Shown here piece after piece: positions 8,695 through 22,863 of a stretch of DNA of 64,000 nucleotides. Source of the stretch: a virus; IMG/VR virus record IMGVR_UViG_3300028025_002046, positions 30,589 through 94,588 of that record; one strand, written 5' to 3'. The notes beneath the pieces were generated by a model. The model made no database searches, was not told where the DNA came from, and saw nothing but the letters and a program-made list of their open reading frames with translations. The first letter of the stretch is position 1, and every line of letters begins with the position of its first letter. A program made the position numbers and the translations under genes.

Positions 8695-8901
8695 ATGAAA
8701 GAAAACGGAGATGTTGAGTTCCTGGATCTATTCGATCCGTCTCAACCTAGATCAGATAAAGAGCTTATCGAAGAAAGACTCGCTATCTGCAATCAATGTC
8801 CATGGCTTCAGAAGAATTTGATGAAATGTAGACAATGTGGTTGTTATATGAAGCTAAAATCTACTTTGCGTCAAGCTAAGTGTCCTCTAGGACATTGGTA
8901 A
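8695..8901 (+). CDS. Small Cys-rich (Zn-binding) protein
   Basis: RLAICNQCP...CRQCGC..KLK.....CPLGHW. Confidence 0.65.
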   Translation: MKENGDVEFLDLFDPSQPRSDKELIEERLAICNQCPWLQKNLMKCRQCGCYMKLKSTLRQAKCPLGHW

Positions 8902-8994
8902 GATACTTTTGCTTCAATCAAGACAGGCTTTGCCTGTTGTATACCGTTCGATTTTATGTTATACTATAGTTCTACATATTTAGGAGAGAAATAT

Positions 8995-9171
8995 ATGTCA
9001 TTTTACGACGAAAGAGCATATCAGAACAAAGATATCCTCGAAAAGATGTTCCTACAGGGACTTTCATCCAAACAAATTGCAAAACAGTTGCATATTTCGT
9101 ATAAATTAGTCAATCTCTGGCTTGTTAAGCATAATTTAGTCACTCGTAACTCAGAAATGAGTTTTCCATAA
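8995..9171 (+). CDS. Small HTH DNA-binding protein
   Basis: GGAG RBS before ATG 8995; LSSKQIAKQLHISYKLVNLWL HTH pattern. Confidence 0.6.
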   Translation: MSFYDERAYQNKDILEKMFLQGLSSKQIAKQLHISYKLVNLWLVKHNLVTRNSEMSFP

Positions 9172-9521
9172 TGCTTAAAAAGATTGGTTGGCTTATTTTG
9201 TTATCTTTATGCTTATTTAGCTTTCAAGCACTGTTCTTTGCTGTCATTTCTACGTTATTTCTGTAATACCTGGCAAAATAGCAAATCTGAAAAAATTTTT
9301 ATTTTCCATATTGGAGAAAATCTGAATATTTTGAATAAGTGTATGATACATACCCTAGGGTAGTGCTACCAGGGTTTCGTAGTGAGCACACATCCCCCTA
9401 CTACCAGCTAAATACAGAGCTTCGATCTGTTATCAATTCGTTACACAAATAAGCGTGTTTGTGCTTGCTAAATGTCTGCCTACTACCCTATAATTAATAC
9501 ATAAAGAGAAAAGGAAAACAA

Positions 9522-9695
9522 ATGACTAAGGTTCTATCGGTTCTATCACTAATCGCTCACGCAGTAGCATTTCTAGTTGCTGTCTATGTAATGGTTCTAG
9601 ACAAAGAAGGTAACTATGGTTATCTACTTGTTTTGGCAACCTTCGTTACCCTGCCAGTAACCATAATTCTAGTAGCAAACAAACTAAGCAAGTAA
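9522..9695 (+). CDS. 57-aa two-TM membrane protein
   Basis: AAGGA RBS; MTKVLSVLSLIAHAVAFLVAVYVMVL...YLLVLATFVTLPVTIILVANKLSK. Confidence 0.65.
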   Translation: MTKVLSVLSLIAHAVAFLVAVYVMVLDKEGNYGYLLVLATFVTLPVTIILVANKLSK

Positions 9696-9705
9696 AGGAA
9701 AACAA

Positions 9706-9831
9706 ATGAGCAATTTCAAACTATACCTATACACCGTTGATGGCGATGCCGTTACCTCAATGATTCACGTTGATGATGTTGAAGAATTCTTGCTTGAACA
9801 TCCTGATGCCGTGCTAACTAACCGTAGATAG
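9706..9831 (+). CDS. 41-aa acidic microprotein (paralog of 10906-11043)
   Basis: AAGGA RBS; YTVDGDAV...EEFLLEHPDAV. Confidence 0.7.
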   Translation: MSNFKLYLYTVDGDAVTSMIHVDDVEEFLLEHPDAVLTNRR

Positions 9832-9861
9832 TTATCCACAGGATAGCAATAGTTATCCACA
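9832..9861 (+). promoter_or_regulatory. DnaA box pair (9832, 9853)
   Basis: TTATCCACA twice, 21-bp period. Confidence 0.75.
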
Positions 9862-9943
9862 GGCGGTACCCAAAAATAACGGTTTGGTAACGAAACGTGT
9901 TATGTGTCGTTATAATGTCTGCCTATGTGCTTATAATTGACCT

Positions 9944-10093
9944 ATGAACGAAATCAAATGTGTAGTATGTGAAGACAAAGCAACCGAACTAGCCCTTGAT
10001 GTTTGGGGAGCAGACTTAGAGATTTGCGACAAGCAAGAGTGCTATGACGAAATTGCTGATGGTGATTGGATACACACAAAGCCACTGGCATAA
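9944..10093 (+). CDS. 49-aa Zn-finger-like microprotein, leaderless
   Basis: CVVC...CDKQEC; ATG 7 nt after TATAAT. Confidence 0.65.
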   Translation: MNEIKCVVCEDKATELALDVWGADLEICDKQECYDEIADGDWIHTKPLA

Positions 10094-10140
10094 TGTCTGC
10101 CCTATCAACTAAACTAATAACATCTAACAAAGGAAACTAA

Positions 10141-10263
10141 ATGGCTAACTACTCAGTATCAAGATTCAACGAACTAATGCGTATCGCTAAGAGTGATGAG
10201 TATATGAGTGAGAGTGAGTTCAATGAACTAATGGCTATCTTCAAGATTCGTGGGTATCACTAA
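10141..10263 (+). CDS. 40-aa microprotein (paralog of 12218-12340)
   Basis: MANYSVSRFNELMRIAKSDEYMSESEFNELMAIFKIRGYH; AAGGA RBS. Confidence 0.75.
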   Translation: MANYSVSRFNELMRIAKSDEYMSESEFNELMAIFKIRGYH

Positions 10264-10462
10264 TGGTTGAATGGATCATCTACCTATTTGGCTTATGGCT
10301 AATAGCGGTTATTCTTACTCAGTAAACTAATCGGCGTGTCGTCTTGACAAATGCCCCCGAAAGGGGGTACCAAAAATAACGGTTTGATAACGACACTACG
10401 ATATGACTTGCATAATGTCTGACCCTGTGCTTATAATTGAGGTATAAAGAAAGAGGTTCCAA

Positions 10463-10744
10463 ATGACTTACTACAACTACCGCCAAAACAACTCGGGTGG
10501 CTCGTTCTCTGACCCTGCCCTAAATGTTGTCGTCAAGGCAAATAGCCCTGCTGAGGCAGATGCGATTGCCATCACTAAGGGTATCTACTTTGACCCTGAG
10601 TTTGAGATTGATTGCGATTGCTGTGGTAACCGCTGGTATCCTGCTACTGAATACACTGCCTCAGATACCATTCCTGCTGTATCAGATTGGGATTGCCAAT
10701 GGGCTATCTCTGATGGTGTGTTTGCTCAGATAGTTGTTGAGTAG
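10463..10744 (+). CDS. Conserved phage hypothetical protein (QNNSGG motif family)
   Basis: YRQNNSGGSF...VKANSPAEA...GIYFD....DCDCCGNRW. Confidence 0.75.
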   Translation: MTYYNYRQNNSGGSFSDPALNVVVKANSPAEADAIAITKGIYFDPEFEIDCDCCGNRWYPATEYTASDTIPAVSDWDCQWAISDGVFAQIVVE

Positions 10745-10905
10745 GGGAAACCCTACTTGATACACACCTAAAAATGTGGGTACCCAAAAATAACGGTTTG
10801 ATAACGAAGCTTAATAAATGTGTAAAATACGGCGTGTCGCTACCTAAAATGTCATACCCCCTTGCTATGCTTACAGGGTAAGCAAAAAAGAAAAGGAAAT
10901 TGAAA

Positions 10906-11043
10906 ATGAAAAACGAACTAAAGAAGTGGCAACTATTCGAATACACCATTGACGGAGATGCTGTCGTTTCGTCAATCTACTACCTAGACATTGCGGAATT
11001 CCTAAAGGAACACCCTGAAGCAGTGCCAACTAACCACCGCTAA
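10906..11043 (+). CDS. 45-aa microprotein (paralog of 9706-9831)
   Basis: YTIDGDAV...AEFLKEHPEAV. Confidence 0.7.
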   Translation: MKNELKKWQLFEYTIDGDAVVSSIYYLDIAEFLKEHPEAVPTNHR

Positions 11044-11160
11044 AAGAAAAGGAAATTGAAATTGATAACACTAACTTTTGAAACTTGGGAAGAATTTGAT
11101 AACGCTCTAAGCGGTATCACTAGCCTAGTAATCGCTACTAATCCAGACCCTACTAAATAG

Positions 11161-11192
11161 TTATCCACAACTACTTATCCACCTGTGGATAA
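11161..11192. promoter_or_regulatory. DnaA box cluster (11161 +, 11175 + with 1 mismatch, 11184 -)
   Basis: TTATCCACA, TTATCCACC, TGTGGATAA. Confidence 0.7.
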
Positions 11193-11321
11193 CTTTGGTA
11201 CCCAAAAATAACGTTTTGGTAACAAACTTAAAAAGACCTACGATTTACGGCGTGTCGTTCCCTAAAATGTCCTACCCCTATGCTATGCTGAAAGCATAAA
11301 GAAAAAGAAATGAGAAATCAA

Positions 11322-11456
11322 ATGGCAGTAACAATCAAACTAACCCCTAGCGAATCAAACCTATTCAACTGCGAAATCTGTGGCAACCCTGCCAACAAGA
11401 TGAAACTAATGAACAGCGGTTACTGCCAATACACTTGTGCCAGATGTGCCAAGTAA
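11322..11456 (+). CDS. 44-aa zinc-ribbon microprotein (paralog of 12839-12967)
   Basis: LTPSES..FNCEICGNPA...SGYCQYTCARC. Confidence 0.7.
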   Translation: MAVTIKLTPSESNLFNCEICGNPANKMKLMNSGYCQYTCARCAK

Positions 11457-11501
11457 AATGTCATAGCCTACTGATAAACTAAATATATAAACAAAAGGAA
11501 A

Positions 11502-11547
11502 TGAGCCTTAGCAAATAAACGAGTAATCGGTGAGCCTAAGCAAATAA
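11502..11547 (+). ncRNA. Candidate cis-regulatory RNA, copy 1 of a 46-nt element
   Basis: Identical to 13221-13266 except two mutually compensatory changes; lies between promoter 11459 and ORF 11580. Confidence 0.5.
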
Positions 11548-11579
11548 GTTCCACTAACAAAAAAAGAAATGAGAAATAA

Positions 11580-11843
11580 ATGAACATCAACGAAATTCGC
11601 GAACAAGGTATCGGTTCAAACTTCAAGGTTATCAACCAAGCAGACGGATACCAAAAGAATAACCGCCTATGGTTTGGTGAGTGTGTTGAGTGTGGTGAGA
11701 GAGTAACCAATTCAAACCTAAAAGGTGTTTGGGTTCACACAATAATCTTAGAGCGTGACGGCTTGTCTACTAGGTCTAGAGATGTTGATTACTGCCCTAC
11801 CGCTCAAATTCAGGGTAACCTAGTTCAAGAGATTTCAATCTAG
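11580..11843 (+). CDS. Hypothetical protein with CxxC
   Basis: ORF track; downstream of promoter 11459. Confidence 0.65.
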   Translation: MNINEIREQGIGSNFKVINQADGYQKNNRLWFGECVECGERVTNSNLKGVWVHTIILERDGLSTRSRDVDYCPTAQIQGNLVQEISI

Positions 11844-11905
11844 GCAAAAACTTTTTGCGACACGCCAGGGATAACTTGACAAATCGCAAAAATTTTGGTA
11901 CCCGA

Positions 11906-11921
11906 TCGAACACTTGTTCGA
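11906..11921. promoter_or_regulatory. Perfect actinobacterial LexA (SOS) box
   Basis: TCGAAC-ACTT-GTTCGA matches TCGAAC-N4-GTTCGA. Confidence 0.75.
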
Positions 11922-12020
11922 ATGTAACGATTAGGTTACGGAAGCTCAGAAACACCCCTAAATCTAACTAAAATGTCAGACCCCCCTGTTACAATGAATA
12001 CATAAACGAAAGGCAAACTA

Positions 12021-12170
12021 ATGAAAAGAATTCACACAGTAATGGCGTTCCTACCAAACAAGAAGAAGGTTATTGACCTAACCTATGACGCAGACAATTT
12101 TACAGTAGAGCAAGCAATCAAGTCTGTGGAAGACAAGGGCTTGACAGTAATTTCGGTTTACACAAACTAA
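12021..12170 (+). CDS. 49-aa hypothetical microprotein
   Basis: GAAAGG RBS; own promoter 11974. Confidence 0.6.
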   Translation: MKRIHTVMAFLPNKKKVIDLTYDADNFTVEQAIKSVEDKGLTVISVYTN

Positions 12171-12217
12171 AATGTCTGACCCTACTGCTAAAATGAAATC
12201 AAACGAAAGGAAGTCAA

Positions 12218-12340
12218 ATGGCTAACTACAATGTTGCGAGATACAACGAACTAATGAGAATTGCTAAGAGCAACGAATTTATGTCTGAAAGCGAATTCAA
12301 CGAATTGGTTGGAATAATGAAAATTAGGGGATACCACTAA
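12218..12340 (+). CDS. 40-aa microprotein (paralog of 10141-10263)
   Basis: MANYNVARYNELMRIAKSNEFMSESEFNELVGIMKIRGYH, 32/40 identical. Confidence 0.75.
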   Translation: MANYNVARYNELMRIAKSNEFMSESEFNELVGIMKIRGYH

Positions 12341-12411
12341 AATGGAATTCCTATCCCTAGCCCTAATCGCTTTCGCAATCTATCTATTTATCAATCAGTA
12401 AAGGAAATCAA

Positions 12412-12612
12412 ATGTCTGTAACTATCAAGCGTAATGTAATTCTATCGGTTCTAGCAACCATCTTCTTCTTCGTGGCTAAGTCTGGTCTTGATGAAATGGC
12501 TAAGTCTGGTCTTGACGGCTTGGGAATGTTCCCTTTCCTAATCGGTGGCTTTGGCTTTCTAGGCTTCTCTATCGGTCTGGTTATTCGTCTATGGGGGAAT
12601 GAGAAAGAGTAG
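12412..12612 (+). CDS. Small two-TM membrane protein
   Basis: Two hydrophobic segments; internal duplication AKSGLD x2. Confidence 0.6.
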   Translation: MSVTIKRNVILSVLATIFFFVAKSGLDEMAKSGLDGLGMFPFLIGGFGFLGFSIGLVIRLWGNEKE

Positions 12613-12615
12613 GAG

Positions 12616-12645
12616 TTATCCACACCCTACCCCAAGTTATCCACA
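12616..12645 (+). promoter_or_regulatory. DnaA box pair (12616, 12637)
   Basis: TTATCCACA twice, 21-bp period. Confidence 0.75.
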
Positions 12646-12656
12646 GGGGGTACCCC

Positions 12657-12724
12657 CCGAACACTTGTTCGAATTTACGTAGCTTACGTAGCTCCCCCCC
12701 AGCTTTTTTCGAACAAAAGATCGA
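12657..12724. promoter_or_regulatory. Two LexA boxes, 1 mismatch each
   Basis: CCGAACACTTGTTCGA 12657-12672; TCGAACAAAAGATCGA 12709-12724. Confidence 0.65.
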
Positions 12725-12838
12725 ATGTAACGAATTGGTAACAAAATGCGACACACCCCCTAAAAGCCTATAAAAACTAACTAAAATGTCAGACCCCCCT
12801 GCTATGCTTACTATGTAAGCAAAAGAAATGAGAAATAA

Positions 12839-12967
12839 ATGAAATACCTACTAAGCCCAGCCGAATCAGCAAAGTTTCCTTGCGACCTTTGTGGCAAGCC
12901 AGCAACTAACGCCTATGTAATGCGTTCAGGATTCGTTCGTTACAATTGTAATCGCTGTGTGTCGTAA
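12839..12967 (+). CDS. 42-aa zinc-ribbon microprotein
   Basis: LSPAES..FPCDLCGKPA...SGFVRYNCNRC. Confidence 0.7.
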   Translation: MKYLLSPAESAKFPCDLCGKPATNAYVMRSGFVRYNCNRCVS

Positions 12968-13028
12968 CGCTAAAATGTCTTACCCTAATGCTAAAATAAA
13001 TTATCAAACAAAAAGAAAGAGCAACTAA

Positions 13029-13208
13029 ATGCCAAAGCCAAGAATGACCAAAGCCGAAAAAGCAATCGTGAAAGCGGTGAACGCAATTGTGTTCGCAAAT
13101 CCAGAAATCCGTAATGGCGGAAAATTCCTAGACAGAGCCGCTTTCCAAAAGTTGCCAGACCAGACCCAGAAAATCTATCTGGATTTGGTAATCAACAAAA
13201 CATTCTAA
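13029..13208 (+). CDS. 59-aa basic hypothetical protein
   Basis: Manual translation MPKPRMTKAEKAIVK...; own promoter 12976. Confidence 0.6.
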   Translation: MPKPRMTKAEKAIVKAVNAIVFANPEIRNGGKFLDRAAFQKLPDQTQKIYLDLVINKTF

Positions 13209-13220
13209 AACCAAATGGCG

Positions 13221-13266
13221 TGAGCCTGAGCAAATAAACGAGTAATCGGTGAGCCTCAGCAAATAA
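13221..13266 (+). ncRNA. Candidate cis-regulatory RNA, copy 2 of a 46-nt element
   Basis: TGAGCCTGAGCAAATAAACGAGTAATCGGTGAGCCTCAGCAAATAA, intergenic. Confidence 0.5.
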
Positions 13267-13287
13267 AGCCCTAACGAAAGGAAAACT

Positions 13288-13449
13288 ATGACAGCCAAAG
13301 AAAAAATCGAATTGCTTACTCGCAAGCACGAAAGAGGTTTGGTTATCTCTAACCTCTACTCTGCCATTCTCGCCTGTGATGAGGATGCCGATGAATGTGA
13401 TGTTTGTCTAGGCTTGAAATACGCAATTCAGCGGATAGAGAAAATGTAG
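13288..13449 (+). CDS. 53-aa hypothetical protein
   Basis: GAAAGGA RBS; manual translation. Confidence 0.6.
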   Translation: MTAKEKIELLTRKHERGLVISNLYSAILACDEDADECDVCLGLKYAIQRIEKM

Positions 13450-13479
13450 TTATCCACAGGTAACCAAAAGTTATCCACA
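13450..13479 (+). promoter_or_regulatory. DnaA box pair (13450, 13471)
   Basis: TTATCCACA twice, 21-bp period. Confidence 0.75.
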
Positions 13480-13573
13480 GGGCGTACCCACCCCCCTAGA
13501 TCATTTACGTAACCAATTAAATACCCCCCAGATTATTTCCCATAATGTCCGACCCCCTTGTTATACTTATCGT

Positions 13574-13717
13574 ATGAACGATAAGACGACTTGCTACCAC
13601 TGCCAGAAGAACAACACCTACGCTTTGGCTACCCTAAAAAATGGCAATGTTATGCGTGTGTGTAACCTATGCTCATTTTACCTTGACGACCTAATCACCA
13701 ACCTAGTAATTCTCTAA
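13574..13717 (+). CDS. 47-aa Zn-finger microprotein, leaderless
   Basis: CYHC...CNLC; ATG 7 nt after TATACT. Confidence 0.6.
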   Translation: MNDKTTCYHCQKNNTYALATLKNGNVMRVCNLCSFYLDDLITNLVIL

Positions 13718-13881
13718 GAAAGGAAAATCCCTATGGATGACGACTATGTAGAATATGATGAGTGCTATGAAGAGCCAGGTGACTTCTTTTCATAGCACCA
13801 CCCTTCGGGGGGTACCCCCAGCTCCGCTGGGTCGTTTACGTTAAGAAGTATAATGTCTGACCCCCCTGCTATACTTGAGGT

Positions 13882-14073
13882 ATGAATTCACGAAAGGCTA
13901 ACTCTATGACCACTCCTAACCCTAACCCTAATGTCGTTGGCTATGTCTGCGTTTACTGCCAGAAACTCTACCTGCCAGAAGAAACCATCTGCCTAGATTG
14001 TAACGAGTATGACGGAATGGTGGCTCTAACCAAGAACATCTTGGCTATGTTTGCTGACCCTGTTGTTTCATAA
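13882..14073 (+). CDS. Zn-ribbon hypothetical protein
   Basis: CVYC...CLDCNEYDG. Confidence 0.65.
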   Translation: MNSRKANSMTTPNPNPNVVGYVCVYCQKLYLPEETICLDCNEYDGMVALTKNILAMFADPVVS

Positions 14074-14128
14074 TGTCTGTGGCTACTGCTAAACTTACCC
14101 TATAAACCCTATCGAAAGGCTATCCCCT

Positions 14129-14224
14129 ATGTGCGATTGCGAAGACCGTCCTTGCTGTGGCTGCTACTCTATGGCTGACCTATACTCCAACTCTGGAGAC
14201 CCCTATGACCCTAACAACTGGTAG
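14129..14224 (+). CDS. 31-aa Cys-rich micropeptide
   Basis: MCDCEDRPCCGC; GAAAGG RBS; own promoter 14074. Confidence 0.55.
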   Translation: MCDCEDRPCCGCYSMADLYSNSGDPYDPNNW

Positions 14225-14329
14225 GTAACTACCCCCCCTGGGGGGTACCCCCAGATCTAGCTCTTTTACGTTAAGAACTATAATGTCCTACCCCCAATGT
14301 ATAATTGTATTATCAACGAAAGGTAAACT

Positions 14330-14596
14330 ATGTTAGAAATCGCATTTGGAATGAAGCAGGTTCAGAAGAACTCAACCGAGAACCCTATGGTCGCTATGAT
14401 GGCTCTGGAACTGGAAGACACTCGCAACAACCTAAGCGAAGATGAGTTTTTAGAGTTTCTTGCTAAGTTTGCTCTCTCTATCTCTGCTATGGCTATCTCT
14501 CAAACTGTTCAGTTGTGTCTTGATGAAACCACGCAAGATGAGTTGGAGAAAACCATTTTGGAACTAATGGAAATGGAAGATTTAGGTAAGGAGTAA
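14330..14596 (+). CDS. Acidic helical hypothetical protein
   Basis: ORF track; own promoter and RBS. Confidence 0.7.
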   Translation: MLEIAFGMKQVQKNSTENPMVAMMALELEDTRNNLSEDEFLEFLAKFALSISAMAISQTVQLCLDETTQDELEKTILELMEMEDLGKE

Positions 14597-14735
14597 TCTC
14601 CTACCCCCGAAAGGGGGTACGCCCAGCTCCGCAGGGCTGGTTTACGTAGCTAATTAAAAAGCTCCCAAACCTTTTTGCTAAAATGTCAGACCCCCTTGCT
14701 ATAATTGTATTATCAACCAAAAGAAATGAGAAATA

Positions 14736-14936
14736 ATGAACGACACTCCGCTAGTAATCCGCTCTAATGAAGTTGTAAACAACCTACGAGATGAGAAACT
14801 AAACTACGACACCTCCTACGCAAAAGCGTTTGGTGCTTGCTGGGGAGTAATGACCGACGAGCAACGACTAATCGTTTTGGAATACTCGCAACGCCAAGCA
14901 ATAATTATCAACACACTAGGAGAAGAAATAAACTAA
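14736..14936 (+). CDS. Hypothetical protein
   Basis: ORF track; own promoter 14684. Confidence 0.65.
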   Translation: MNDTPLVIRSNEVVNNLRDEKLNYDTSYAKAFGACWGVMTDEQRLIVLEYSQRQAIIINTLGEEIN

Positions 14937-15115
14937 TGATGACACGCAAAGACTATGTAGCAACCGCAGAAATTCTAAATTCTTATGTTCACAATTTAGA
15001 CGCTCCAATTTTTGATTGCCTAGTTCAAGATTTTGTGGCTATGTTCGCAGAAGATAACGACCGCTTTCTAATTGATAAGTTTGAAGACGCTTGTTGGGGA
15101 ACGGCTAGGGAGTAA
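14936..15115 (+). CDS. Conserved phage hypothetical protein (MTRKDY...DNxRF...F..AC family)
   Basis: Start overlaps upstream stop; recognisable motif. Confidence 0.7.
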   Translation: MMTRKDYVATAEILNSYVHNLDAPIFDCLVQDFVAMFAEDNDRFLIDKFEDACWGTARE

Positions 15116-15224
15116 TCCCTGCTCCCCTGGGGGTACGCCCCCACCCCTAGCTCGTTTACGTAACGCATTAAATTTACCCTAGATTTATTCCTAAAATGTC
15201 TTACCCCTGATGTATAATAAAACT

Positions 15225-15395
15225 ATGAAGAAAAAGAAACCACCACTAGGCAAGGTCGCCAACGCTACTCGCAAGGCTCACGCCAAGGAATTGTTCCAGA
15301 GCCTTTTACTCAACAAGCACTTAGTCGTTACCCCTGCCAACCGCAAGGGTTCACGACAGAGCAACAACCAAAAAGCAATTAGGGAGAGTTACTAA
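15225..15395 (+). CDS. Basic leaderless microprotein
   Basis: ATG 7 nt after TATAAT; K/R rich. Confidence 0.6.
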   Translation: MKKKKPPLGKVANATRKAHAKELFQSLLLNKHLVVTPANRKGSRQSNNQKAIRESY

Positions 15396-15700
15396 TGGAT
15401 GAACTATTTATTGTAATCAACGACAAGGGATACGCTGTTGAGATGTGTCTTACCGAGCAAGAAGCGTTAGAGTGGATTGCTAAATTTGGTAACAAAAACT
15501 ATTCTATCGATTTGGATGTGGTGTGCTAATGAAAGTTTATGTAGTTATTGAGACTTGTTGTATGCACTTTTGTGGAGTATACAAGGACAAGGCTGAGGCT
15601 GATGCCTATGCCGAAGAGAATGACTATTCCGTCTATGAGTATGACCTTTAGTGTCATACCCTCACGCTATAATTGAAACACCCTAACGAAAGAGAAACTA

Positions 15701-16168
15701 ATGAAAGCAATTATCGAATCTAACTGTGTTTGTGAACCAGACGAAGAAAACCCTGAAAGCCTAAATTGCTACGGTGACTGCTGGGAATGGCAGAAAGAAG
15801 ACGTTCAGTGGATTATCGGTGAATGGGCAACTAAGAATGAAGTAGCCGAAGGACAGCCAATTCTAATTACTGGCACAAACATGAACTGGAACCATGTTTC
15901 AGGCTGGGCAACCGCAACACCAGAAACCATTCTCGATAAACTAACCTTGAACGGTGATTTTAGTTTAGAGTTTGACTTTGACCCTGATGAAAATACTTTC
16001 AATGTTGTTCGTCGTTCTCACGATGAAATGGGAGCGTTGTTTACTTTTGTAATCATGGAGCCATGCAACCAGTGTGGAGTAGGAATTCCACGAGAGATTT
16101 ATAACGAAGAACTAGGCATGTGTCTTGAATGTTCAAATGCTTACTTCAACCATGAGGATGAAGAATGA
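15701..16168 (+). CDS. Acidic hypothetical protein with C-terminal Zn finger
   Basis: ORF track; promoter 15652. Confidence 0.7.
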   Translation: MKAIIESNCVCEPDEENPESLNCYGDCWEWQKEDVQWIIGEWATKNEVAEGQPILITGTNMNWNHVSGWATATPETILDKLTLNGDFSLEFDFDPDENTFNVVRRSHDEMGALFTFVIMEPCNQCGVGIPREIYNEELGMCLECSNAYFNHEDEE

Positions 16169-16324
16169 TAGAGTTTGGAGTTATCCTAATAGCGATAGGT
16201 TTGGTTATCCTACTGAATCAGTAGATACCCCCCGAAAGGGGGTACGCCCTATCGATCAGCTGCTTTACGTAGCCATAATGTCAGACCCTAAATGTATAAT
16301 GGTATTATCAAAGAAAAGGAAACT

Positions 16325-17044
16325 ATGTCACTCATTCGCTCTAAAGACCGTAAAGTTGCTAACCAAGTAAACAAGGCTGGCAGTCAGGCTTCAATGGCTA
16401 ACACTTTTGGATTACCTAGTGGCAAGGCTTTTTCCTGCCCTGGGGCTACCTCGGTTTGTGAGACTATTTGTTACGCTGGCAAACTTGAAAAGGTATTCAA
16501 GGGTGTTCGCAATGTTTTGGTATCTAACTATGAGCAACTACTGGCAACCGATACTCTAGGCATGATTGCTTTGATTGACGAAATGATTCAAGACTTCAAG
16601 CAGGAATGTGAAAAGCGTAATGCCGATAAGTTATTCCGTATTCACTGGGACGGAGACTTCTTTAGCGAGGACTACACTAGAGCATGGAATTTTGTTATCC
16701 GCCTAAACCCTGATGTTCAATTCTGGGCTTACACTCGTTCAGACTTTGCTGTTCCAATTCTAATTGACATTCCTAACCTAGCCCTATACTTCTCTGCTGA
16801 TTCTGCTAACAAGACTTTGGCATGGGAACTAAAGCGTAAGTATGGTGTGAAACTTGCTTACCTCGCCAAAGACTTTGCTACAGGCAAGAGTGACTTCAAT
16901 GAGCAACAGGAAAAGTCTGCTGTTCCCTGCCCTGAAAACAACAAGAAGATTCCAATGATTAGCGAAAAGGGCAGTGCTTGCGTGATGTGTTCGCAGTGTG
17001 TGTTTGCTCGCAATGACATTCTGTTTAGTGCTACTAAAAAGTAG
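16325..17044 (+). CDS. Phage Gp88-like (radical-SAM-related) protein
   Basis: FGLP.G..FSCPGAT..C...CYA; FRIHWDGDFF; FWAYTR; CP...C..C..C. Confidence 0.75.
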   Translation: MSLIRSKDRKVANQVNKAGSQASMANTFGLPSGKAFSCPGATSVCETICYAGKLEKVFKGVRNVLVSNYEQLLATDTLGMIALIDEMIQDFKQECEKRNADKLFRIHWDGDFFSEDYTRAWNFVIRLNPDVQFWAYTRSDFAVPILIDIPNLALYFSADSANKTLAWELKRKYGVKLAYLAKDFATGKSDFNEQQEKSAVPCPENNKKIPMISEKGSACVMCSQCVFARNDILFSATKK

Positions 17045-17264
17045 TGCTAGGCAGGGTACCCCCCACCCCATAGCTGCTTTACGTTACGATGCTAAAATGT
17101 CCTACCCCCCCTGTATAATATATACATAAGCAGGAAACGCAGCCCCCAAACAGAAAAAAATAATTGAACAAGTTTGAAAAATGTGCTTGACAATCTCCTG
17201 CTTATGCCTTATAATAGATACATAAGCAAAAATGTTTATGTAAACCGAATAGAAAGAAGCAAAA

Positions 17265-17411
17265 ATGACCGAAGTTACTGTTGGCTCACAGTTCGCAACC
17301 CAGAAGTCTGGCGTTGTTGGTATTGTTCAGGAAGTTGTAATCAACAAGAACGGCTCTCAGCGTGTTCGCCTTGATGTAAACGGAACTGACCGCTGGACTA
17401 CTGTAAAGTAA
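17265..17411 (+). CDS. 48-aa small beta-barrel (SH3-like) protein
   Basis: MTEVTVGSQFATQKSGVVGIVQEV...RVRLDVNGTDRWTTVK. Confidence 0.6.
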   Translation: MTEVTVGSQFATQKSGVVGIVQEVVINKNGSQRVRLDVNGTDRWTTVK

Positions 17412-17417
17412 TTCACC

Positions 17418-17445
17418 AATCCTGAGTATGATTTCAAACTGCTCA
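17418..17445 (+). ncRNA. H-type pseudoknot motif copy
   Basis: aatc-c-tgagta-t-gatt-tcaaac-tgctca; covaries with five other copies. Confidence 0.6.
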
Positions 17446-17574
17446 CAACATTGTAAATAGGTTCGTTATCCATAATTGTGGCTCGTAGAGATAACCAATA
17501 AGCACCCACTCCCTATCTATAATGTCTTACCCCCACGCTATAATAGAGTTACAACCCAAACAAAGGAAGATAAA

Positions 17575-18012
17575 ATGGCAAGAGCCGTATCAGTAAAAAT
17601 CCCAACTATCAAAGTCATTGAGATGATTGAGAACAAGTTGGCAGAGATGAACAAGGTAGTCAAGGAATACCCTGCCCTACTAGCAACCTACAACAAGGCT
17701 AACAAGGAATACACCAAAGCCCTTGCTGAGTTGGTTGGCAAGAACTCTAACAAGATTGTTGCTTATCGTGATTTCGATTGGACTAGCGACCAGATTGCTC
17801 TGTCTAGCGACTATCGTGGCTCTGCCCAGATTTATGTTGGCAAGGGTCTAACAAGCAAGATTGGCGACAAGCCAGAAAAGCCAGAAGACCCAGACAACTA
17901 CACTTTCAAGCAGAACTTAGAGCAGTTGGAAAAGACCTTGAAGTTGCTTCGTATGACCGAACAGGAAAGCGTTTCTGCCTCAACCTACAACTCTGTCTTA
18001 GACCTAATCTAA
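17575..18012 (+). CDS. Coiled-coil hypothetical protein
   Basis: AAGGA RBS before ATG 17575; promoter 17523. Confidence 0.75.
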   Translation: MARAVSVKIPTIKVIEMIENKLAEMNKVVKEYPALLATYNKANKEYTKALAELVGKNSNKIVAYRDFDWTSDQIALSSDYRGSAQIYVGKGLTSKIGDKPEKPEDPDNYTFKQNLEQLEKTLKLLRMTEQESVSASTYNSVLDLI

Positions 18013-18017
18013 GATAA

Positions 18018-18126
18018 GCACCTAAGCAAGTGTCTAAAAGGCTTAGTAAACACCTTACTCTCTGTTGCTCGCAAGGGTATTCATAATAAGGTTTTTATAC
18101 ACCTAAGCAAGTGTCTAAACTGCTTA
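18018..18126 (+). ncRNA. Two H-type pseudoknot motif copies (18018-18046, 18099-18126)
   Basis: gcac-ctaagcaa-gtgt-ctaaaag-gcttag and acac-c-taagca-a-gtgt-ctaaac-tgctta. Confidence 0.6.
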
Positions 18127-18127
18127 C

Positions 18128-18174
18128 AATCCCCCTGTGAAGTATCTGGATAGATACTGGTTAGCAGGGGGATT
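18128..18174 (+). terminator. Long GC-rich hairpin
   Basis: aatccccctg...cagggggatt enclosing agtatct/agatact. Confidence 0.5.
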
Positions 18175-18281
18175 CTTGCTACCCCAGGAGCTGGGGGTAC
18201 CCCCCCTACCCACTAAGCCCTTTACGTTATAATGTCTTACCCCCCTGTTATAATTGACCTATCACAAAGAAAAGGAAAACT

Positions 18282-18509
18282 ATGAAACACGAAACAACCC
18301 TTTACACCTACACCAACAAAGCCTATGTTACTGAGTATGGCGATTTCGCAGCCGAAGGCTCTTGCCTTACTTTTGATTCTTCACTACTCTCTAACTCACA
18401 ATGGCAGTTAGTAGATGAGTTGCCAGATTCACAAAAGTTTGAGTATGTCTTGGCTATCCTTGACGGAGAAGAAGATGTTATTCGTGAGATTGAAAGCGAG
18501 AATAAATAA
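18282..18509 (+). CDS. Acidic hypothetical protein
   Basis: ORF track; promoter 18233. Confidence 0.7.
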   Translation: MKHETTLYTYTNKAYVTEYGDFAAEGSCLTFDSSLLSNSQWQLVDELPDSQKFEYVLAILDGEEDVIREIESENK

Positions 18510-18970
18510 TGTTTGATGATGTAATCGCTATGGACATAGTGGAACAACTAACCGAAGAACAACTAGACCAACTAATCGCAATACTAGAAGGAGCAGGTTA
18601 CTAATGTTTATTCCAAACTTAGCAATACTACTAGACGAAATCAAACAGGCAGAGAAATCTTCCAAACTTGAAGGTGTTGTGTCTTACGCTAGTGGCTATG
18701 AAGATGGCTTGCGTATGGCATTAGACATTTTGGAAGGAAGGGTAGAGTAATGGAAAAGATTACTGTTAGTCTTAGGTTTGAATACTACCCTGAAGAAGAC
18801 CACGCAGAATTGTTTGAAGACATGACTGAAGATGAAATGATTCGCTATGCTAAAGAAATGGCTTGTGAAGATATAGTCAGTGGAGATGTTTGGGAATGGC
18901 TAGAAGTTTCGGTAGAGTAAAATGTCAGACCCTACCAGTATAATTAGACTATCAACGAAAGGAAACACTA

Positions 18971-19462
18971 ATGGGAACTCGTAATCTAACTAAGGTAATT
19001 GACAAAGACGGAGTAACTAAGGTTGCTCAATACGGACAATGGGACGGCTACCCTAGCGGACAGGGTATCAACGCTCTTCTACACGCCTACAATCACAGGC
19101 AGATTGAAAGCAAGTTGCCTAGACTACACTTTCTAACCGACAGCGAGATTGAGAACATCAACTCACTACTATCGGCAAGCGGACAGCCAATTAGCGAAGT
19201 CTATCCTACCCTATCTCGTGATACCTGTGCGGACATTCTAGGCTATGTCGCTTGGTCTAATGATGTATTCCTAGTGGATAGTAGCGACTTTGAGAATGAC
19301 GAATTGTTTTGTGAAGCAGTTTACACGCTAGACTTTCAAAAGAAAAAGTTTATCTCTACTTATGGTGGACACACCTTAGAGTTTGAGTTGGACGACCTAC
19401 CAGAACCGAAAGAGTTTTTGGCAGATTGGGCGTATGAACTAAATCCTGGTGTGGTGGGCTAA
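18971..19462 (+). CDS. Conserved phage hypothetical protein (MGTR...YxxWDGYP family)
   Basis: Recognisable motif; own promoter 18923. Confidence 0.75.
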   Translation: MGTRNLTKVIDKDGVTKVAQYGQWDGYPSGQGINALLHAYNHRQIESKLPRLHFLTDSEIENINSLLSASGQPISEVYPTLSRDTCADILGYVAWSNDVFLVDSSDFENDELFCEAVYTLDFQKKKFISTYGGHTLEFELDDLPEPKEFLADWAYELNPGVVG

Positions 19463-19559
19463 CGCTCACCCCTAGGGGGTACCGCCCAAGATCCAAGCTG
19501 TTTACGACTATAATGTCAGACCCCCAATGTATAATGGAACTATCAACGAAAGGGAAACA

Positions 19560-19721
19560 ATGAGCGAGTATGTAGCAGTAGACATTTATGACCGTATGGA
19601 GGCTAACGCCAACGACCTTGGTGGTAGCGTTGAGGAAGACCTAGCAGAGATTCTTGCGTCTGGTGACCTAAGTGCTTTTGAAGACTACTTTGGCGACACA
19701 GACCCATTTGAATTCCTATAA
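19560..19721 (+). CDS. Very acidic microprotein
   Basis: RBS before ATG 19560; D/E rich. Confidence 0.6.
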   Translation: MSEYVAVDIYDRMEANANDLGGSVEEDLAEILASGDLSAFEDYFGDTDPFEFL

Positions 19722-19767
19722 TGTCCTACCCCACCTGTATAATAGAAACATCAACGAAAGGTAAAGA

Positions 19768-20247
19768 ATGAACGAGAATGAAAACACAGATAACATTGGC
19801 AATTTTGGTGAGTATAATGCTGTTCCTGTTGAACCAATAGTCCACCCTTCCCTAGCAAAATTGTATGACGAGATTGCTGACCTAAAAGAAAAGTTGGTTC
19901 ACTCAACTACCATTGCGAGCGAAGCACAAACTCGTTTGCGTGAACAGCAGAGCGAGTATCGTGAGAACGAGGGCAAACTTCAAGACATTCTAATTGAAGC
20001 ACTTGGAGATGAAGAAATTGACAAAGATGTAGCAGACAAGATTGCCGAACTCTATGGTCTTGACCTACGCAAGGTATTCTCTATCAACATTCAGGTTGTT
20101 GTAAATGTTGAAGTGTCTGCTCCTGTTGGAACTGACCCTAGCGACATTGTAGATAATGTTGGCTTTGGCTATGGCGGTATCACCTACTCTGGTATTGGTG
20201 ATTTGGAAAGCGACCATTGGGAAATTGACGACTGGGAAGAAGTGTAG
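19768..20247 (+). CDS. Acidic coiled-coil hypothetical protein
   Basis: ORF track; promoter 19722. Confidence 0.7.
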   Translation: MNENENTDNIGNFGEYNAVPVEPIVHPSLAKLYDEIADLKEKLVHSTTIASEAQTRLREQQSEYRENEGKLQDILIEALGDEEIDKDVADKIAELYGLDLRKVFSINIQVVVNVEVSAPVGTDPSDIVDNVGFGYGGITYSGIGDLESDHWEIDDWEEV

Positions 20248-20266
20248 GGTAAACCTTTCCCCTACC

Positions 20267-20293
20267 AGTGCTGGGTATCACTATAAACTACCC
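20267..20293 (+). ncRNA. H-type pseudoknot motif copy
   Basis: agtg-c-tgggta-t-cact-ataaac-taccc. Confidence 0.6.
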
Positions 20294-20457
20294 CCACATG
20301 GGCGTACCCCTCCCTGCCCCAAGATCCATTTACGATAGCTTTAAGAAATCTCCAGAAAATTCCCCAAAACTTTTTGCTAAATAGTATTGACAAACAGAGT
20401 GTTTGCCTGTATAATTAGACTATACACAAATCAACCACTAACAGAAAGAGAACCCCT

Positions 20458-21474
20458 ATGGCTCACGAACTAGAACAAGGCGAGAATGGCGAAGTTGCTT
20501 TTGCTTCGCTACGCCAACCTGCTTGGCACAATCTAGGCACTGTCTTTGAAGAGCAGGTCAATACAGCAGAGATGCTGAAACTTGCTCACCTTGATAATTG
20601 GAATGTTCGTCTTGAAGATGTAACCATTCCAGAAAACTTTGAGAGCGACAAAAACTATTCGTTCGTTACTCGCACTAACCCTTTTGATAACACCAAGAAT
20701 GATGTTCTCGGCGTTGTCGGTGAGCGTTATGTTCCCCTACAAAACGAAGACCTATTTTCGTTTGGCGACAACCTGCTAGACGGCGGTGGTCGTTGGGAAA
20801 CCGCTGGCTCAATCAAGGGTGGTCGTCAGGTGTTCGGCTCTATCGCTTTGGCTGATAGCATTACCCTAGACCCTAATGGTCGTGCTGATAAGATTGATAA
20901 CTATCTTCTAATCAACACTTCTCACGACGGAAGCATTGCTATTCAGGCAAGTATCACGCCTGTTCGTGTTGTATGTGCTAACACTCTCAACCTTGCTCTA
21001 TCTTCATTCAAGGGCAAGAAAGCAGCGAAGCAGACTTTCAAAATCCGCCACACTTCAACTGCCGAAGGTAAAATCGCAGTTGCTCGTGAAGCACTAGGTC
21101 TTGCCAAGACTTACCTAGACGAGTTTTCTCTTATGGCTAACGCTATGATTGAAAAGGAAATCACTAAGGCTGACTTTGATAAGATTGTCGCTCTTGCTTA
21201 CCCTGCTCCTGAAAAAGACGCTAAGGGTTCATTCAAGAAATACGACAGCAAGATTGACCTGCTAAACGACATTTATGTTGGGCAATTCAATGACACCATT
21301 TCTGGAACTGCTTGGGGAGCATACAACGCTCTAACCGAACGCCTAGACTGGTATCGCTCTGCTCGTGGTGGAAGCAACGAGAGTATCTACGCTTCTGCTT
21401 CTGGCTTTGACCCTGTAATCAACGCAGAGAAGAACCGCTTGATGAAGATTGTTCAACAGGTTGTAATGGCGTAA
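20458..21474 (+). CDS. DUF932 / TIGR03299 phage-plasmid-like protein
   Basis: AWHNLG; LGVVGERYVPLQNE; ETAGSIKGG; SHDGS; TPVRVVCANTL; RHT; GTAWGAYNALTE. Confidence 0.85.
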   Translation: MAHELEQGENGEVAFASLRQPAWHNLGTVFEEQVNTAEMLKLAHLDNWNVRLEDVTIPENFESDKNYSFVTRTNPFDNTKNDVLGVVGERYVPLQNEDLFSFGDNLLDGGGRWETAGSIKGGRQVFGSIALADSITLDPNGRADKIDNYLLINTSHDGSIAIQASITPVRVVCANTLNLALSSFKGKKAAKQTFKIRHTSTAEGKIAVAREALGLAKTYLDEFSLMANAMIEKEITKADFDKIVALAYPAPEKDAKGSFKKYDSKIDLLNDIYVGQFNDTISGTAWGAYNALTERLDWYRSARGGSNESIYASASGFDPVINAEKNRLMKIVQQVVMA

Positions 21475-21621
21475 GCCATTCTCCCTTGCTCCTGGCAGTA
21501 AAATGTCAGGGGTATAGGGGGTACCCAGCTATCGATCTTATTTACGACACACCTTACGATATCCCTATAATGTCATACCCTACCCTTATAATAGATACAT
21601 AACCCGAAGAAAGGAAAAGCA

Positions 21622-21807
21622 ATGCCTAAATACCAAATAGAAATGATGATTGAATTCTCTGGTGAGATTGAAGCAGACAACGAAGAACACGCAGAACAAC
21701 TTGCTTGGACGAGTTGGGGAGATACAATGGATAGCCCTATCGTTTATGACGGTGTTTATTCAATTGAAGTAGAAGCAGTAGACGAAGAAGAAGACGAGGA
21801 AGACTAA
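21622..21807 (+). CDS. Acidic microprotein (EA-x3-A family)
   Basis: EIEADNEEHAEQLA. Confidence 0.65.
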   Translation: MPKYQIEMMIEFSGEIEADNEEHAEQLAWTSWGDTMDSPIVYDGVYSIEVEAVDEEEDEED

Positions 21808-22052
21808 TGGGAGCAAGAATAAATCCAGACGACATTCAGTTTCGTAAAGACGCTGACTACTATATGGACCCTATCGGTCTAGCAGTCATCCTTATTGAAG
21901 AGATGATTGACTGGGGTATTGAACGAGACCGAATGATTGTTGAGAAACTACCAGAAGAACACATTTGGTATTTTGATGGTCTACTCCGTCGAACAGAAAC
22001 TATCCTAGACAGACTAGGTGTAGAGAACATTCCAGTAGTAGGTGATTGCTAA
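21807..22052 (+). CDS. Hypothetical protein
   Basis: ORF track; coupled start/stop. Confidence 0.6.
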   Translation: MGARINPDDIQFRKDADYYMDPIGLAVILIEEMIDWGIERDRMIVEKLPEEHIWYFDGLLRRTETILDRLGVENIPVVGDC

Positions 22053-22151
22053 TGAGTGATTGTATTGAGAATGATAACGGACGTTGTATGTTCTGTGGTG
22101 CTATAATGTCTGACCCTACCGCTATAATTGAAGCCTAACCAAAGGAGAACA

Positions 22152-22325
22152 ATGTCTAAAACCTATCAAGTAGAATACAATGCTGTCTATTGGGTAACTG
22201 CCAATAGCGAAGAAGAAGCAATTGAGTTGGCTATTGAAGAACACGAACAAATGCCTAATGGCGATTGGGAAGCAATGATAGACCCTTATGACAGCGACAA
22301 CTTCAACACACTAGGAGAGAAATGA
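22152..22325 (+). CDS. Acidic microprotein (EA-x3-A family)
   Basis: AGGAG RBS; WVTANSEEEAIELA. Confidence 0.65.
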   Translation: MSKTYQVEYNAVYWVTANSEEEAIELAIEEHEQMPNGDWEAMIDPYDSDNFNTLGEK

Positions 22326-22863
22326 CACAACTAGAAAGCCTACTAGAAGAAAAGGCAGAACTGCTTCAAGACTTTGAAGATGTAAAGAATATGCTAAGTG
22401 ATTCAGGACACGACCTATTCCTAAACAGGATAGATATGCTTGACAGTATGATTGAGATTGAGTTGAACAATGCCTAATTACATTATTGTTGCTACTAGAA
22501 AACAAGAGTTTGAGATTGATGCTGTTGATTTTCCAGATGAACAGGCTGCCCTTGCTTCTTTGGATAATTGGATTGCTGATGACTTTGAAGCATTTGCTAT
22601 TCAGGCAACTTGGGATTTTGAGGTGTTAGCAAATGACTAGACCTGCTTGTGCTTGGTGTGGTATGGATGAAATGGATGAGTATGCCTCATTCAACGGTAA
22701 AGATATTTGTATAGATTGTGCAGGAGAATAATGAGTTATAGCACTTGTAGAGAATGTCTTGAAGACTACCTAGATGAAGACCTAAATGATTTTATGGTTT
22801 GTTATGTATGTGACCACGAATGTGACGAAACCTGTAATAATCCCTGTAATGTAAAGGAAGCAA

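Follow-up and report, generated by a model that had tools for sequence, protein, structure and literature searches.

Twenty-seven promoters of an uncultured freshwater actinophage resemble those of the DNA-damage activator PafBC

Background

The closest described counterparts of the promoters reported here are the PafBC-dependent (RecA-NDp) promoters found in mycobacteria and other Actinobacteria (Gamulin 2004; Mueller 2018, 2021; PMC8635444), for which the published consensus is tGTCgg(N10)tA(N3)T without a -35 element, PafB reading positions -28 to -23 via the two G of GTC (PMC8635444). RNAP-SigA does not use such promoters on its own (PMC8635444). Host PafBC is always present, and single-stranded DNA switches it on. 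PafBC sigma adaptation is not known to operate outside the cellular damage response in mycobacteria.

The phage sites share with these promoters TGTC at -28 to -25 with an invariant GTC, a 10-nt gap, TANNNT at -12 to -7, the lack of a -35 element and a non-palindromic recognition block, and the extended box that they carry exactly matches chromosomal copies ahead of recA, radA, uvrA and ligA. They differ in being viral, in forming 27 tandem cassettes with small genes of unknown function instead of repair genes, in belonging only to the ACCCC subclass and never to the TGTCGGTGG form of host recA, and in carrying an upstream CTAWAA, which is not in the published motif, and either G or T at -23.

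Four other systems bear comparison. In T4 middle promoters (a MotA box near -30 plus a -10 element, with AsiA), a non-sigma protein likewise substitutes for -35 recognition while the host -10 is kept; T4, however, encodes the factors itself and remodels region 4 of sigma, whereas in this phage no such factor has been identified and the box is of host type. The SiwR-dependent promoter of M. smegmatis (PMC10693628) also uses a WYL activator and depends on the -26 region, but the SiwR site, 19 bp long, is an imperfect palindrome that has GGA, not TGTC, at -26, and SiwR was therefore ruled out as reader of the phage box. The LexA/SOS boxes of temperate phages wire viral genes to the host DNA-damage signal, but they are repressor sites controlling induction, whereas the phage sites are activator-type promoters. 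Finally, the host-takeover early arrays of SPO1 and T5 resemble the present array in that one arm of a large lytic phage holds numerous small genes with a strong promoter for each; the promoters there are canonical sigma-A/sigma-70 -35/-10 promoters. No description of phage use of PafBC-type promoters was found in the literature searched, and a full-text literature search for the box 10-mer returned only unrelated primers.

Results

An array of 27 promoter copies with an invariant core

The window analyzed is a 64,000-nucleotide stretch of the 94.6-kb (~95-kb) genome of an uncultured freshwater actinophage (IMG/VR record IMGVR_UViG_3300028025_002046), and coordinates refer to the window. The generic pattern TGTC-N12-TANNNT occurred 42 times in the window, compared to 11.9 +/- 3.2 times in shuffles, with 28 of the 42 matches on the + strand within 9473-22128. 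The match at 17994 was without any flanking feature of the promoter copies and was discounted as chance, leaving 27. The stricter pattern TGTCNNACCC-N6-TANNNT gave 22 forward, 0 reverse and 0 control matches. Weight-matrix scans of both strands of the 94.6-kb genome, with TGTC masked and, in a second round, TA...T also masked, returned the identical 27 sites and no further copy outside 9473-22128. TGTC and TA...T were intact in all 27, and since the masked scans found no departing site, this invariance is not an artefact of the search pattern. The array is real, and the original prediction of at least 27 promoters held as exactly 27, all on the same strand:

9473-9494, + strand: copy 1, TGTCTG, N10, TATAAT; ORF 9522-9695 with Shine-Dalgarno
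9916-9937, + strand: copy 2; leaderless ATG at 9944, ORF to 10093
10094-10115, + strand: copy 3, TAAACT, abutting the stop of the preceding ORF; ORF 10141-10263
10416-10437, + strand: copy 4; ORF 10463-10744 (DUF7296)
10850-10871, + strand: copy 5, TATGCT; ORF 10906-11043
11268-11289, + strand: copy 6; ORF 11310-11456
11459-11480, + strand: copy 7, TAAACT; ORF 11580-11843, 99-nt leader
11974-11995, + strand: copy 8, TACAAT; ORF 12021-12170
12173-12194, + strand: copy 9, TAAAAT; ORF 12218-12340
12787-12808, + strand: copy 10; ORF 12839-12967
12976-12997, + strand: copy 11; ORF 13029-13208
13546-13567, + strand: copy 12, TATACT; leaderless ATG at 13574
13854-13875, + strand: copy 13; leaderless ATG at 13882
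14074-14095, + strand: copy 14, without ACCC; ORF 14129-14224
14284-14305, + strand: copy 15; ORF 14330-14596
14684-14705, + strand: copy 16, the example in the original prediction, top matrix score; ORF 14736-14936
15197-15218, + strand: copy 17; leaderless ATG at 15225
15652-15673, + strand: copy 18; ORF 15701-16168
16279-16300, + strand: copy 19; ORF 16325-17044 (GP88 family)
17098-17119, + strand: copy 20; start is TTG at 17174 or a conserved 48-aa ORF, 17265-17411
17523-17544, + strand: copy 21; ORF 17575-18012
18233-18254, + strand: copy 22; ORF 18282-18509
18923-18944, + strand: copy 23; ORF 18971-19462
19514-19535, + strand: copy 24; ORF 19560-19721
19722-19743, + strand: copy 25; ORF 19768-20247, then a DUF932 gene (20458-21474) without its own copy
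21571-21592, + strand: copy 26; ORF 21622-21807
22107-22128, + strand: copy 27, the last; ORF 22152-22325

The hexamer and TANNNT were separated by 10 nt in 27/27 copies, and variant spacing occurred nowhere in the genome. In every copy tGTC occupies -28 to -25 with both G of the GTC triplet kept, followed by T, A or C at -24 and G or T at -23, T replacing G in half of the copies. ACCC follows the hexamer in 22/27, and the -10 variants are those listed originally (TATAAT, TATACT, TAAACT, TAAAAT, TATGCT and TACAAT). The conserved block is longer than first noted, spanning -34 to -18 as CTAWAA-TGTC-NK-ACCCY (CTAWAATGTCNKACCCY); it is non-palindromic and fixed in register to the -10 throughout. 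No -35 element was present, the best TTGACA match at 16-18 nt spacing being 2-3 of 6, the same as at random positions, and the canonical SigA criterion (a TTGACA-like hexamer 16-18 nt before the -10) was not met. The claimed hexamer, exact gap, usual ACCC and element near -26 instead of -35 thus all held, and the claim of PafBC-type geometry is supported, the phage sites fitting the published consensus (PMC8635444).

Start-site signatures accompany the motif, with a purine at the predicted +1 in 25/27 copies and Y/A at -1/+1. An ORF lies downstream of every copy, as had been claimed: four copies have a leaderless ATG exactly at the predicted +1 (6 nt past the -10), and in 22 a Shine-Dalgarno sequence and an ATG follow at a distance of 20-34 nt (99 nt in one of them). 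Only at 17098 is the downstream start ambiguous. A frame at 14837-15115, overlapping the ORF of copy 16, is conserved in three relatives.

Two context features lie outside the array:

7696-9171, + strand: AT-rich head of the + strand arm, three genes without a TGTC box
37431-37730, - strand: WhiB-like protein, an actinobacterial-host marker and candidate phage-encoded partner of SigA region 4

The head-of-arm genes encode Endonuclease VII (7696-8145), DUF6171 (8695-8901) and a 58-aa GerE/sigma-region-4-like HTH protein (~8995-9171), and ordinary -35/-10-like or extended -10 sites were read by eye upstream of all three.

Relatives, likely host and the possibility of a phage-encoded reader

The motif is common to at least 85 related IMG/VR contigs, and among relatives ranging from 36 to 51% GC the box is conserved, with the -10 hexamer shifting along with GC content. 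In strain contigs, gains and losses of cassettes terminate at promoter copies. The contigs come from one RNA and one DNA run that are uninformative on starts or levels, and transcription is not shown. No megablast match to the array was found among cultured phages. The Streptomyces phages Wakanda and Wofford and the Rhodococcus phages NiceHouse and Grayson, which are cultured distant relatives, showed no enrichment of the pattern and are therefore unusable as models. E7 and F5 (39 kb, PMC10202952), isolated phages of Planktophila, are members of another family and were absent among the WhiB matches. No lysogeny genes were seen in the parts of the phage examined.

The phage DnaE is 55% identical to a Streptomyces phage DnaE. 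The most likely host, inferred and not shown, is a low-GC, Nanopelagicales-type actinobacterium from fresh water; Ca. Planktophila is a candidate genus inferred only from WhiB, habitat and GC. The originally suggested host, Mycobacterium or Corynebacterium, did not hold.

The original prediction had allowed for a phage-encoded activator and proposed a search for WYL, HTH or sigma-like genes. No WYL domain or gene was found in the phage or in 50 related records, and no sigma gene was found in the phage; the search did yield the WhiB-like protein and the weak region-4-like HTH. A phage protein could read the -34 to -18 block and recruit or remodel the SigA holoenzyme in the manner of T4 MotA/AsiA, the candidates being the WhiB-like protein, the 58-aa HTH or an unannotated small conserved protein, and the likeness to a PafBC box would then be mimicry or coincidence. 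In favor of this explanation, WhiB is present in the phage and in each of the three relatives with a completeness of 90% or more, the small HTH gene with its ordinary promoter lies immediately upstream of copy 1, many small core proteins conserved in relatives are unannotated, and the phages use a single narrow box subclass with a conserved CTAWAA. Against it, the WhiB gene is distant, on the opposite strand and amid replication genes, and none of 14 relatives with the motif, including three near-complete ones, had a detectable homologue of the 58-aa HTH; on this result the HTH was set aside as a conserved activator, with the reservation that such a search has low sensitivity at 58 aa.

PafBC and the extended box on bacterial chromosomes

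A check for pafBC in the predicted host had been proposed, and Ca. Planktophila, with the host assignment itself inferred, carries a syntenic pafB-pafC-tatC locus. Its PafB matches M. smegmatis PafB (7p5x, 9fnd) at E 6e-41 with an identical RMFERDK recognition helix, and the GTC-reading arginines R46 and R50 are conserved; the PafB and PafC ORFs are named by Pfam and PDB and have no NCBIfam name. The canonical box TGTCRG-N10-TANNNT was present at recA in four genera, including Ca. Planktophila. The loose pattern was not enriched in Planktophila genomes (29 matches compared to 34 in the control), so single matches there, which precede a C5 methylase and a ResIII/PLD gene, are leads only. No radA was found in two Planktophila assemblies, both incomplete.

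A search of 151 sampled Actinomycetes genomes for the extended box, TGTCRGACCCC-N5-TANNNT, returned 120 matches in 76 of them, compared to 2 for the reversed control. Downstream of these boxes lie ligA (three times), uvrA (twice), recA, radA, DUF222/HNH genes (three) and a PD-(D/E)XK nuclease gene; in Williamsia the boxes precede radA, polA, three DUF222/HNH genes and a HIRAN gene. Among radA orthologues, that of Williamsia has the extended box, and those of Rothia and Zimmermannella have the classical form, TGTCRGTG. Myxococcales MAGs with the box encode PafB-PafC fusions, and the genes that follow the box in these MAGs are ssb and a recA-like gene. As read from the downstream genes, the chromosomal genes behind the extended box form a DNA-damage regulon.

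These chromosomal copies weigh against a phage-encoded reader. The same box with equal spacing precedes repair genes in Actinomycetes and Myxococcales, which indicates that a cellular reader exists, and the Myxococcales concerned have PafBC fusions and no WhiB. A phage-encoded reader is unlikely; it is not excluded, because the phage has WhiB, the small HTH protein and numerous small, conserved proteins without a known function.

Within Nanopelagicales the picture is less favorable to PafBC. The ACCCC subclass is rare on these chromosomes (10 matches in 8 of 61 genomes), and in Planktophila it lies ahead of SAM-IV riboswitches instead of repair genes. In five Nanopelagicales genomes a tRNA-like element beside the box was called by neither ARAGORN nor Rfam.

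Strong activator-independent SigA promoters relying on the -10 or extended -10 are a second alternative, possible and rated above a phage-encoded reader, in which the block would serve as a shut-off operator, a cassette-recombination boundary or a decoy soaking up PafBC. Many actinobacterial promoters rely on the -10 and extended -10. The phage -10 hexamers are near consensus, and 12 copies carry TGn at -15/-14, so they might work without an activator; the identical box in Planktophila drives riboswitch-controlled, housekeeping-looking genes; and cassette gains and losses stop at promoter copies. Against this alternative, the non-palindromic block keeps its register to the -10 in 27/27 copies and persists in relatives in which the -10 has drifted, RNAP-SigA alone does not use such architecture (PMC8635444), and the chromosomal copies belong to a damage regulon.

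Discussion

Given these comparisons, we lean, without strong conviction, towards reading the 27 sites as PafBC-type (RecA-NDp, 'sigma adaptation') promoters used by the phage. Sequence analysis shows the motif with its geometry and start-site signatures, an extended box identical to that of chromosomal DNA-repair promoters, pafBC in the candidate host and no WYL gene in the phage, and the proposal that the phage co-opts host PafBC is supported on every sequence-level prediction that could be tested. PafBC as the reader, the timing, the trigger and the host genus are inferred, as there are no expression or binding data, and the originally claimed 'early' expression and triggering by incoming DNA likewise remain inference. 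Besides the near-consensus -10 hexamers and the scarcity and riboswitch setting of the ACCCC subclass in the likely host group, the restriction of the phages to that subclass, the T at -23 in half of the copies, the CTAWAA foreign to the published motif, and the WhiB and small unknown proteins encoded by the phage all count against PafBC.

Under the PafBC reading, each site would combine a SigA -10 hexamer with a -26 element in place of a -35, the HTH of host PafB would read GTC, and PafC would form the link to SigA region 4. With its C-tract at -22 to -18, the site may be predisposed to the straight course that the DNA takes in the PafBC complex. Each copy would start a short transcript, leaderless or with a ~20-nt leader bearing a Shine-Dalgarno sequence, and most array transcripts would encode one small, fast-evolving accessory gene. 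Given that PafBC is constantly present and activated by single-stranded DNA, the array would fire once infection yields such DNA from genome ends, nuclease action or replication.

A bolder reading, which we consider as likely to fail as to hold, is that a large and widespread clade of freshwater actinophages expresses a hypervariable bank of accessory genes via the single-stranded DNA-sensing PafBC of the host; host takeover and anti-defence are only candidate functions for this bank.

The resemblance of the phage promoters suggests, without proof, that the damage alarm of the host switches on 27 small genes. If true, this would be the first known case of a virus exploiting sigma adaptation, with an activator that senses single-stranded DNA serving as a timing device and providing a new route to the takeover of transcription without a factor of the phage's own. 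The phage would then ride an alarm that may also turn on repair and defence genes of the host. The ACCCC-extended box would represent an optimal PafBC site common to Actinomycetes and to Myxococcota with fused PafBC, and the ~27 natural variants per genome, hundreds across relatives, would be a ready mutational map of PafBC promoter needs, covering the conserved ACCCC and upstream A/T that are missing from the published consensus. Nanopelagicales-type bacteria are among the most abundant freshwater bacteria and are hard to study, and the array would offer a handle on gene expression in their phages.

Repeated promoter element in the phage genome

The window contains 42 matches to TGTC-N12-TANNNT, where shuffled sequences give 11.9 ± 3.2, and 28 of the 42 lie on the plus strand between 9473 and 22128. 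One of them, at 17994, was considered as a 28th copy and rejected as a chance match, having no flanking feature; the remaining 27 copies were aligned to build a weight matrix. A scan of both strands of the 94.6-kb genome with the TGTC columns masked recovered the same 27 sites, as did a scan with TGTC and TA...T both masked, and neither scan found a site deviating from TGTC or TA...T. The original prediction of at least 27 promoters with PafBC geometry in this interval held as an observation, and the extent of the element had been set too small. With the −10 hexamer placed at −12 to −7, conservation across the 27 copies spans −34 to −18 and reads CTAWAA-TGTC-N-K-ACCC-Y (the box).

Position −1 is a pyrimidine, and 25 of 27 copies have a purine as the seventh base past the hexamer. 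In four copies an ATG falls exactly on this base, so their mRNAs would be leaderless, while 22 have a Shine-Dalgarno sequence and ATG slightly further downstream. Matches to TTGACA in the expected −35 region were no better than at random positions. Several copies overlap the ORF before them, whose stop codon falls inside the conserved TAA directly before TGTC.

Other features recur in this region. Palindromes of the GGGGTACCCC type and a TTTACG motif lie 25–50 nt upstream of many copies (for example, 13810–13853, 14240–14283, and 18190–18232), in the gap that separates a cassette from the promoter following it, and could be terminators or another binding site. Seven perfect TTATCCACA 9-mers (DnaA box) are found on the plus strand within 9400–22200; no further exact copy occurs on that strand elsewhere in the genome, the reverse complement being left out of this count. 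Contigs of related strains from a DNA sequencing run (X2) omit or swap whole cassettes across 9571–22863, and several contig joints stop right at promoter copies (e.g., to 10092, 11456, and 14682). The repeated promoters are possible recombination points between cassettes; the contigs are 90–99% alike, and other strains or repeats may explain the joints.

The box in related phages

Scanning IMG/VR with AATGTCNNACCC-N6-TANAAT returned at least 120 stretches, and at least 85 of these, at 35–51% GC, contain TGTCNNACC-N7-TANNNT at least twice. The 56 loci that have at least three copies contain 265 in total, all confined to a single strand, and 14 larger records contain 3–27 copies each in one-strand clusters. 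The near-complete relatives G011, G016, and G051 have a structural and replication core in common with this phage (35–70% protein identity) and carry their copies in a syntenic arm around a DUF932 gene, where the small genes are mostly not common to these genomes. A 51% GC relative (L077, 26.4–34.1 kb of record G033) has 27 copies at ~200-bp spacing, in which the −10 hexamers have drifted to GC-richer forms (TAGACT, TACGCT) and the upstream box is unchanged. The pattern was not enriched in the cultured distant relatives Wakanda, Wofford, NiceHouse, and Grayson.

Phage gene content and likely host

The IMG/VR record comprises 94,588 bases (~42% GC), of which the window covers 30589–94588, and is an estimated 88% complete. 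Collagen-like tail fibres are encoded in the window, and a minus-strand module encodes DnaE, DnaB, DnaG, RNR, ThyX, RecA, DenV, and four tRNAs. An AT-rich stretch (~36% GC, 7433–9470), with two adjacent TGTGGATAA DnaA-box sequences near 7522–7545, separates the tail genes from the array. Three plus-strand genes ahead of the array, for Endonuclease VII, DUF6171, and a small HTH protein, lie behind ordinary promoter-like sites, and two of the three are apparently leaderless.

Genes referred to in the text
7696–8145, plus strand, Endonuclease VII, conventional promoter-like site upstream
8995–9168, plus strand, 58-aa GerE/region-4-like HTH protein, ordinary-looking promoter upstream
37431–37730, WhiB-like protein, 99 aa

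DnaE shares 55% identity with its counterpart in Streptomyces BE-cluster phages, all 233 cultured-phage matches of the WhiB-like protein are actinophages, and several studies have metagenomes (freshwater, aquatic, and subsurface) that contain near-identical DNA. Together these point to an actinobacterial host, most plausibly a low-GC freshwater one, a likely inference for a host that has not been shown. On this evidence it is neither Mycobacterium nor Corynebacterium.

The box in cellular genomes

The published consensus for PafBC is tGTCgg(N10)tA(N3)T; PafB reads −28 to −23, its R46 and R50 recognising both G bases of GTC, and PafC contacts SigA region 4 (PMC8635444). These promoters lack a −35 element, and the DNA is straight at −18 to −23, where canonical complexes bend (PMC8635444). 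Among 185,579 species genomes, an 18-base version of the phage box has 30 matches. Actinobacterial chromosomes account for ~14, including two from Ca. Planktophila, and a further ~8 are in MAGs of Myxococcales or Deltaproteobacteria, whose GC content of ~70% makes a chance match improbable.

When genomes of the class Actinomycetes were sampled evenly, TGTCRGACCCC-N5-TANNNT (the ACCCC subclass) gave 120 matches in 76 of 151 genomes, compared to two for the reversed control; seven came from four unpublished genomes (G126, G143, G149, and G155), on which no gene-level statement is based. The next genes at 29 such loci include ligA (3), uvrA (2), recA with an intein (1), radA (1), DUF222/HNH (3), and a PD-(D/E)XK nuclease (1), and several of the genes at these loci are leaderless. 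Williamsia has 11 matches to TGTCNGNCCC-N6-TANNNT compared to three for the control, all 11 reading TGTC-A/G-G-A/C-CCC, ahead of genes including radA, polA, three DUF222/HNH genes, an HNH gene, and a HIRAN gene. The radA orthologue has the ACCCC-type box in Williamsia and the classical TGTCAGTG or TGTCGGTGG form in Rothia and Zimmermannella, indicating that the two forms replace each other at one gene, and recA is preceded by TGTCRG-N10-TANNNT in all four genera examined. Given these repair-gene neighbours, the radA interchange, and the recA boxes, the phage box is likely a subclass of actinobacterial DNA-damage promoter, as inferred from sequence without functional data.

Outside Actinobacteria, a strong HTH_PafC match was present in all five box-bearing Myxococcales MAGs tested, and two ORFs scanned from such MAGs encode PafB-PafC fusions (675 and 688 aa). 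A PafBC-like regulon there is possible.

Cellular loci carrying the box
L135, L137, L143, L148, L155, L156, L161; L225, L226 (Myxococcales/Deltaproteobacteria MAGs, ~70% GC): 18-base box before ssb, a recA-like gene, ftsK, and IS200-type transposase genes
L139 6257–6409; L133 870–991 and 2173–2294 (Ca. Planktophila): phage-like box TGTCAGACCC(C/G)CCTG(C/A)TATTCT directly before SAM-IV riboswitches

PafBC of a candidate host

In two Ca. Planktophila genomes, tatC follows a pair of neighbouring WYL genes, matching the mycobacterial pafB-pafC-tatA-tatC order. One encodes HTH_PafC, WYL, and WCX domains, and the other product aligns over its full length with the M. smegmatis PafB of the cryo-EM entries (E 6e-41), the recognition helix RMFERDK being identical, both arginines included. 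Upstream of Planktophila recA lies TGTCGGTG-N8-TAGTGT with a LexA-like box.

The box and SAM-IV riboswitch unit is repeated in one Planktophila genome. A histone-deacetylase-family gene follows one copy of the unit. Loose TGTCAG-N10-TANNNT sites also occur in an island with tRNAs (L211 and L205, from Planktophila G001/G002), ahead of a leaderless C5 DNA methylase gene and a ResIII/PLD gene; a damage regulon reaching defence genes is conceivable, the island sites not being significant on their own. In five Nanopelagicales genomes (L233, L234, L236, L238, and L239), TGTCAGACCCCATCCCTAATAT adjoins a conserved ~75-nt tRNA-like element called by neither ARAGORN nor Rfam.

Which factor reads the box

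We lean modestly towards co-option of PafBC by the phage for the array promoters, without functional data. Several observations count against it: the phages are restricted to the ACCCC subclass, of which Nanopelagicales chromosomes have few examples (10 matches across 8 of 61 genomes, with none for the control); the Planktophila boxes of this subclass precede SAM-IV riboswitches; and T occupies −23 in half of the phage copies. A second reading, possible and ranked next, is that the promoters are activator-independent and the conserved block has another role, as the −10 hexamers are conceivably strong enough for some activity unaided. Ranked lowest, and unlikely though not excluded, is a phage-encoded factor. 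WhiB is kept in the near-complete relatives, and the phage and its relatives have many conserved small proteins of unknown function, which favour this reading; no WYL domain was found in this phage genome or 50 related records, nor any sigma gene in the phage, where the only hit was the 58-aa HTH protein, which has no detectable homologue in 14 relatives.

Under PafBC co-option, the pre-array genes with conventional promoter-like sites, including Endonuclease VII, may be expressed first. Host SigA holoenzyme would bind the −10 of the array promoters, and PafBC activated by single-stranded DNA would fit in between the −26 element and SigA region 4, with the conserved A as the transcription start. 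Possible triggers are genome ends, nuclease action, or replication. At the positions that stay unbent in the PafBC complex, stiffness may come from the C-tract (−22 to −18). As for function, the array could serve as a bank of accessory or anti-defence genes.

Among ~8.4 million papers and preprints searched, none was found to describe PafBC-type promoters in a phage; the set did not include an ACS Infect Dis 2025 paper on pafBC and mycobacteriophage resistance (cited in PMC12848934). The promoter class itself is already known. With PafBC dependence inferred in the absence of functional data, its use by viruses, as arrays and across a large uncultured clade, is likely to be new.
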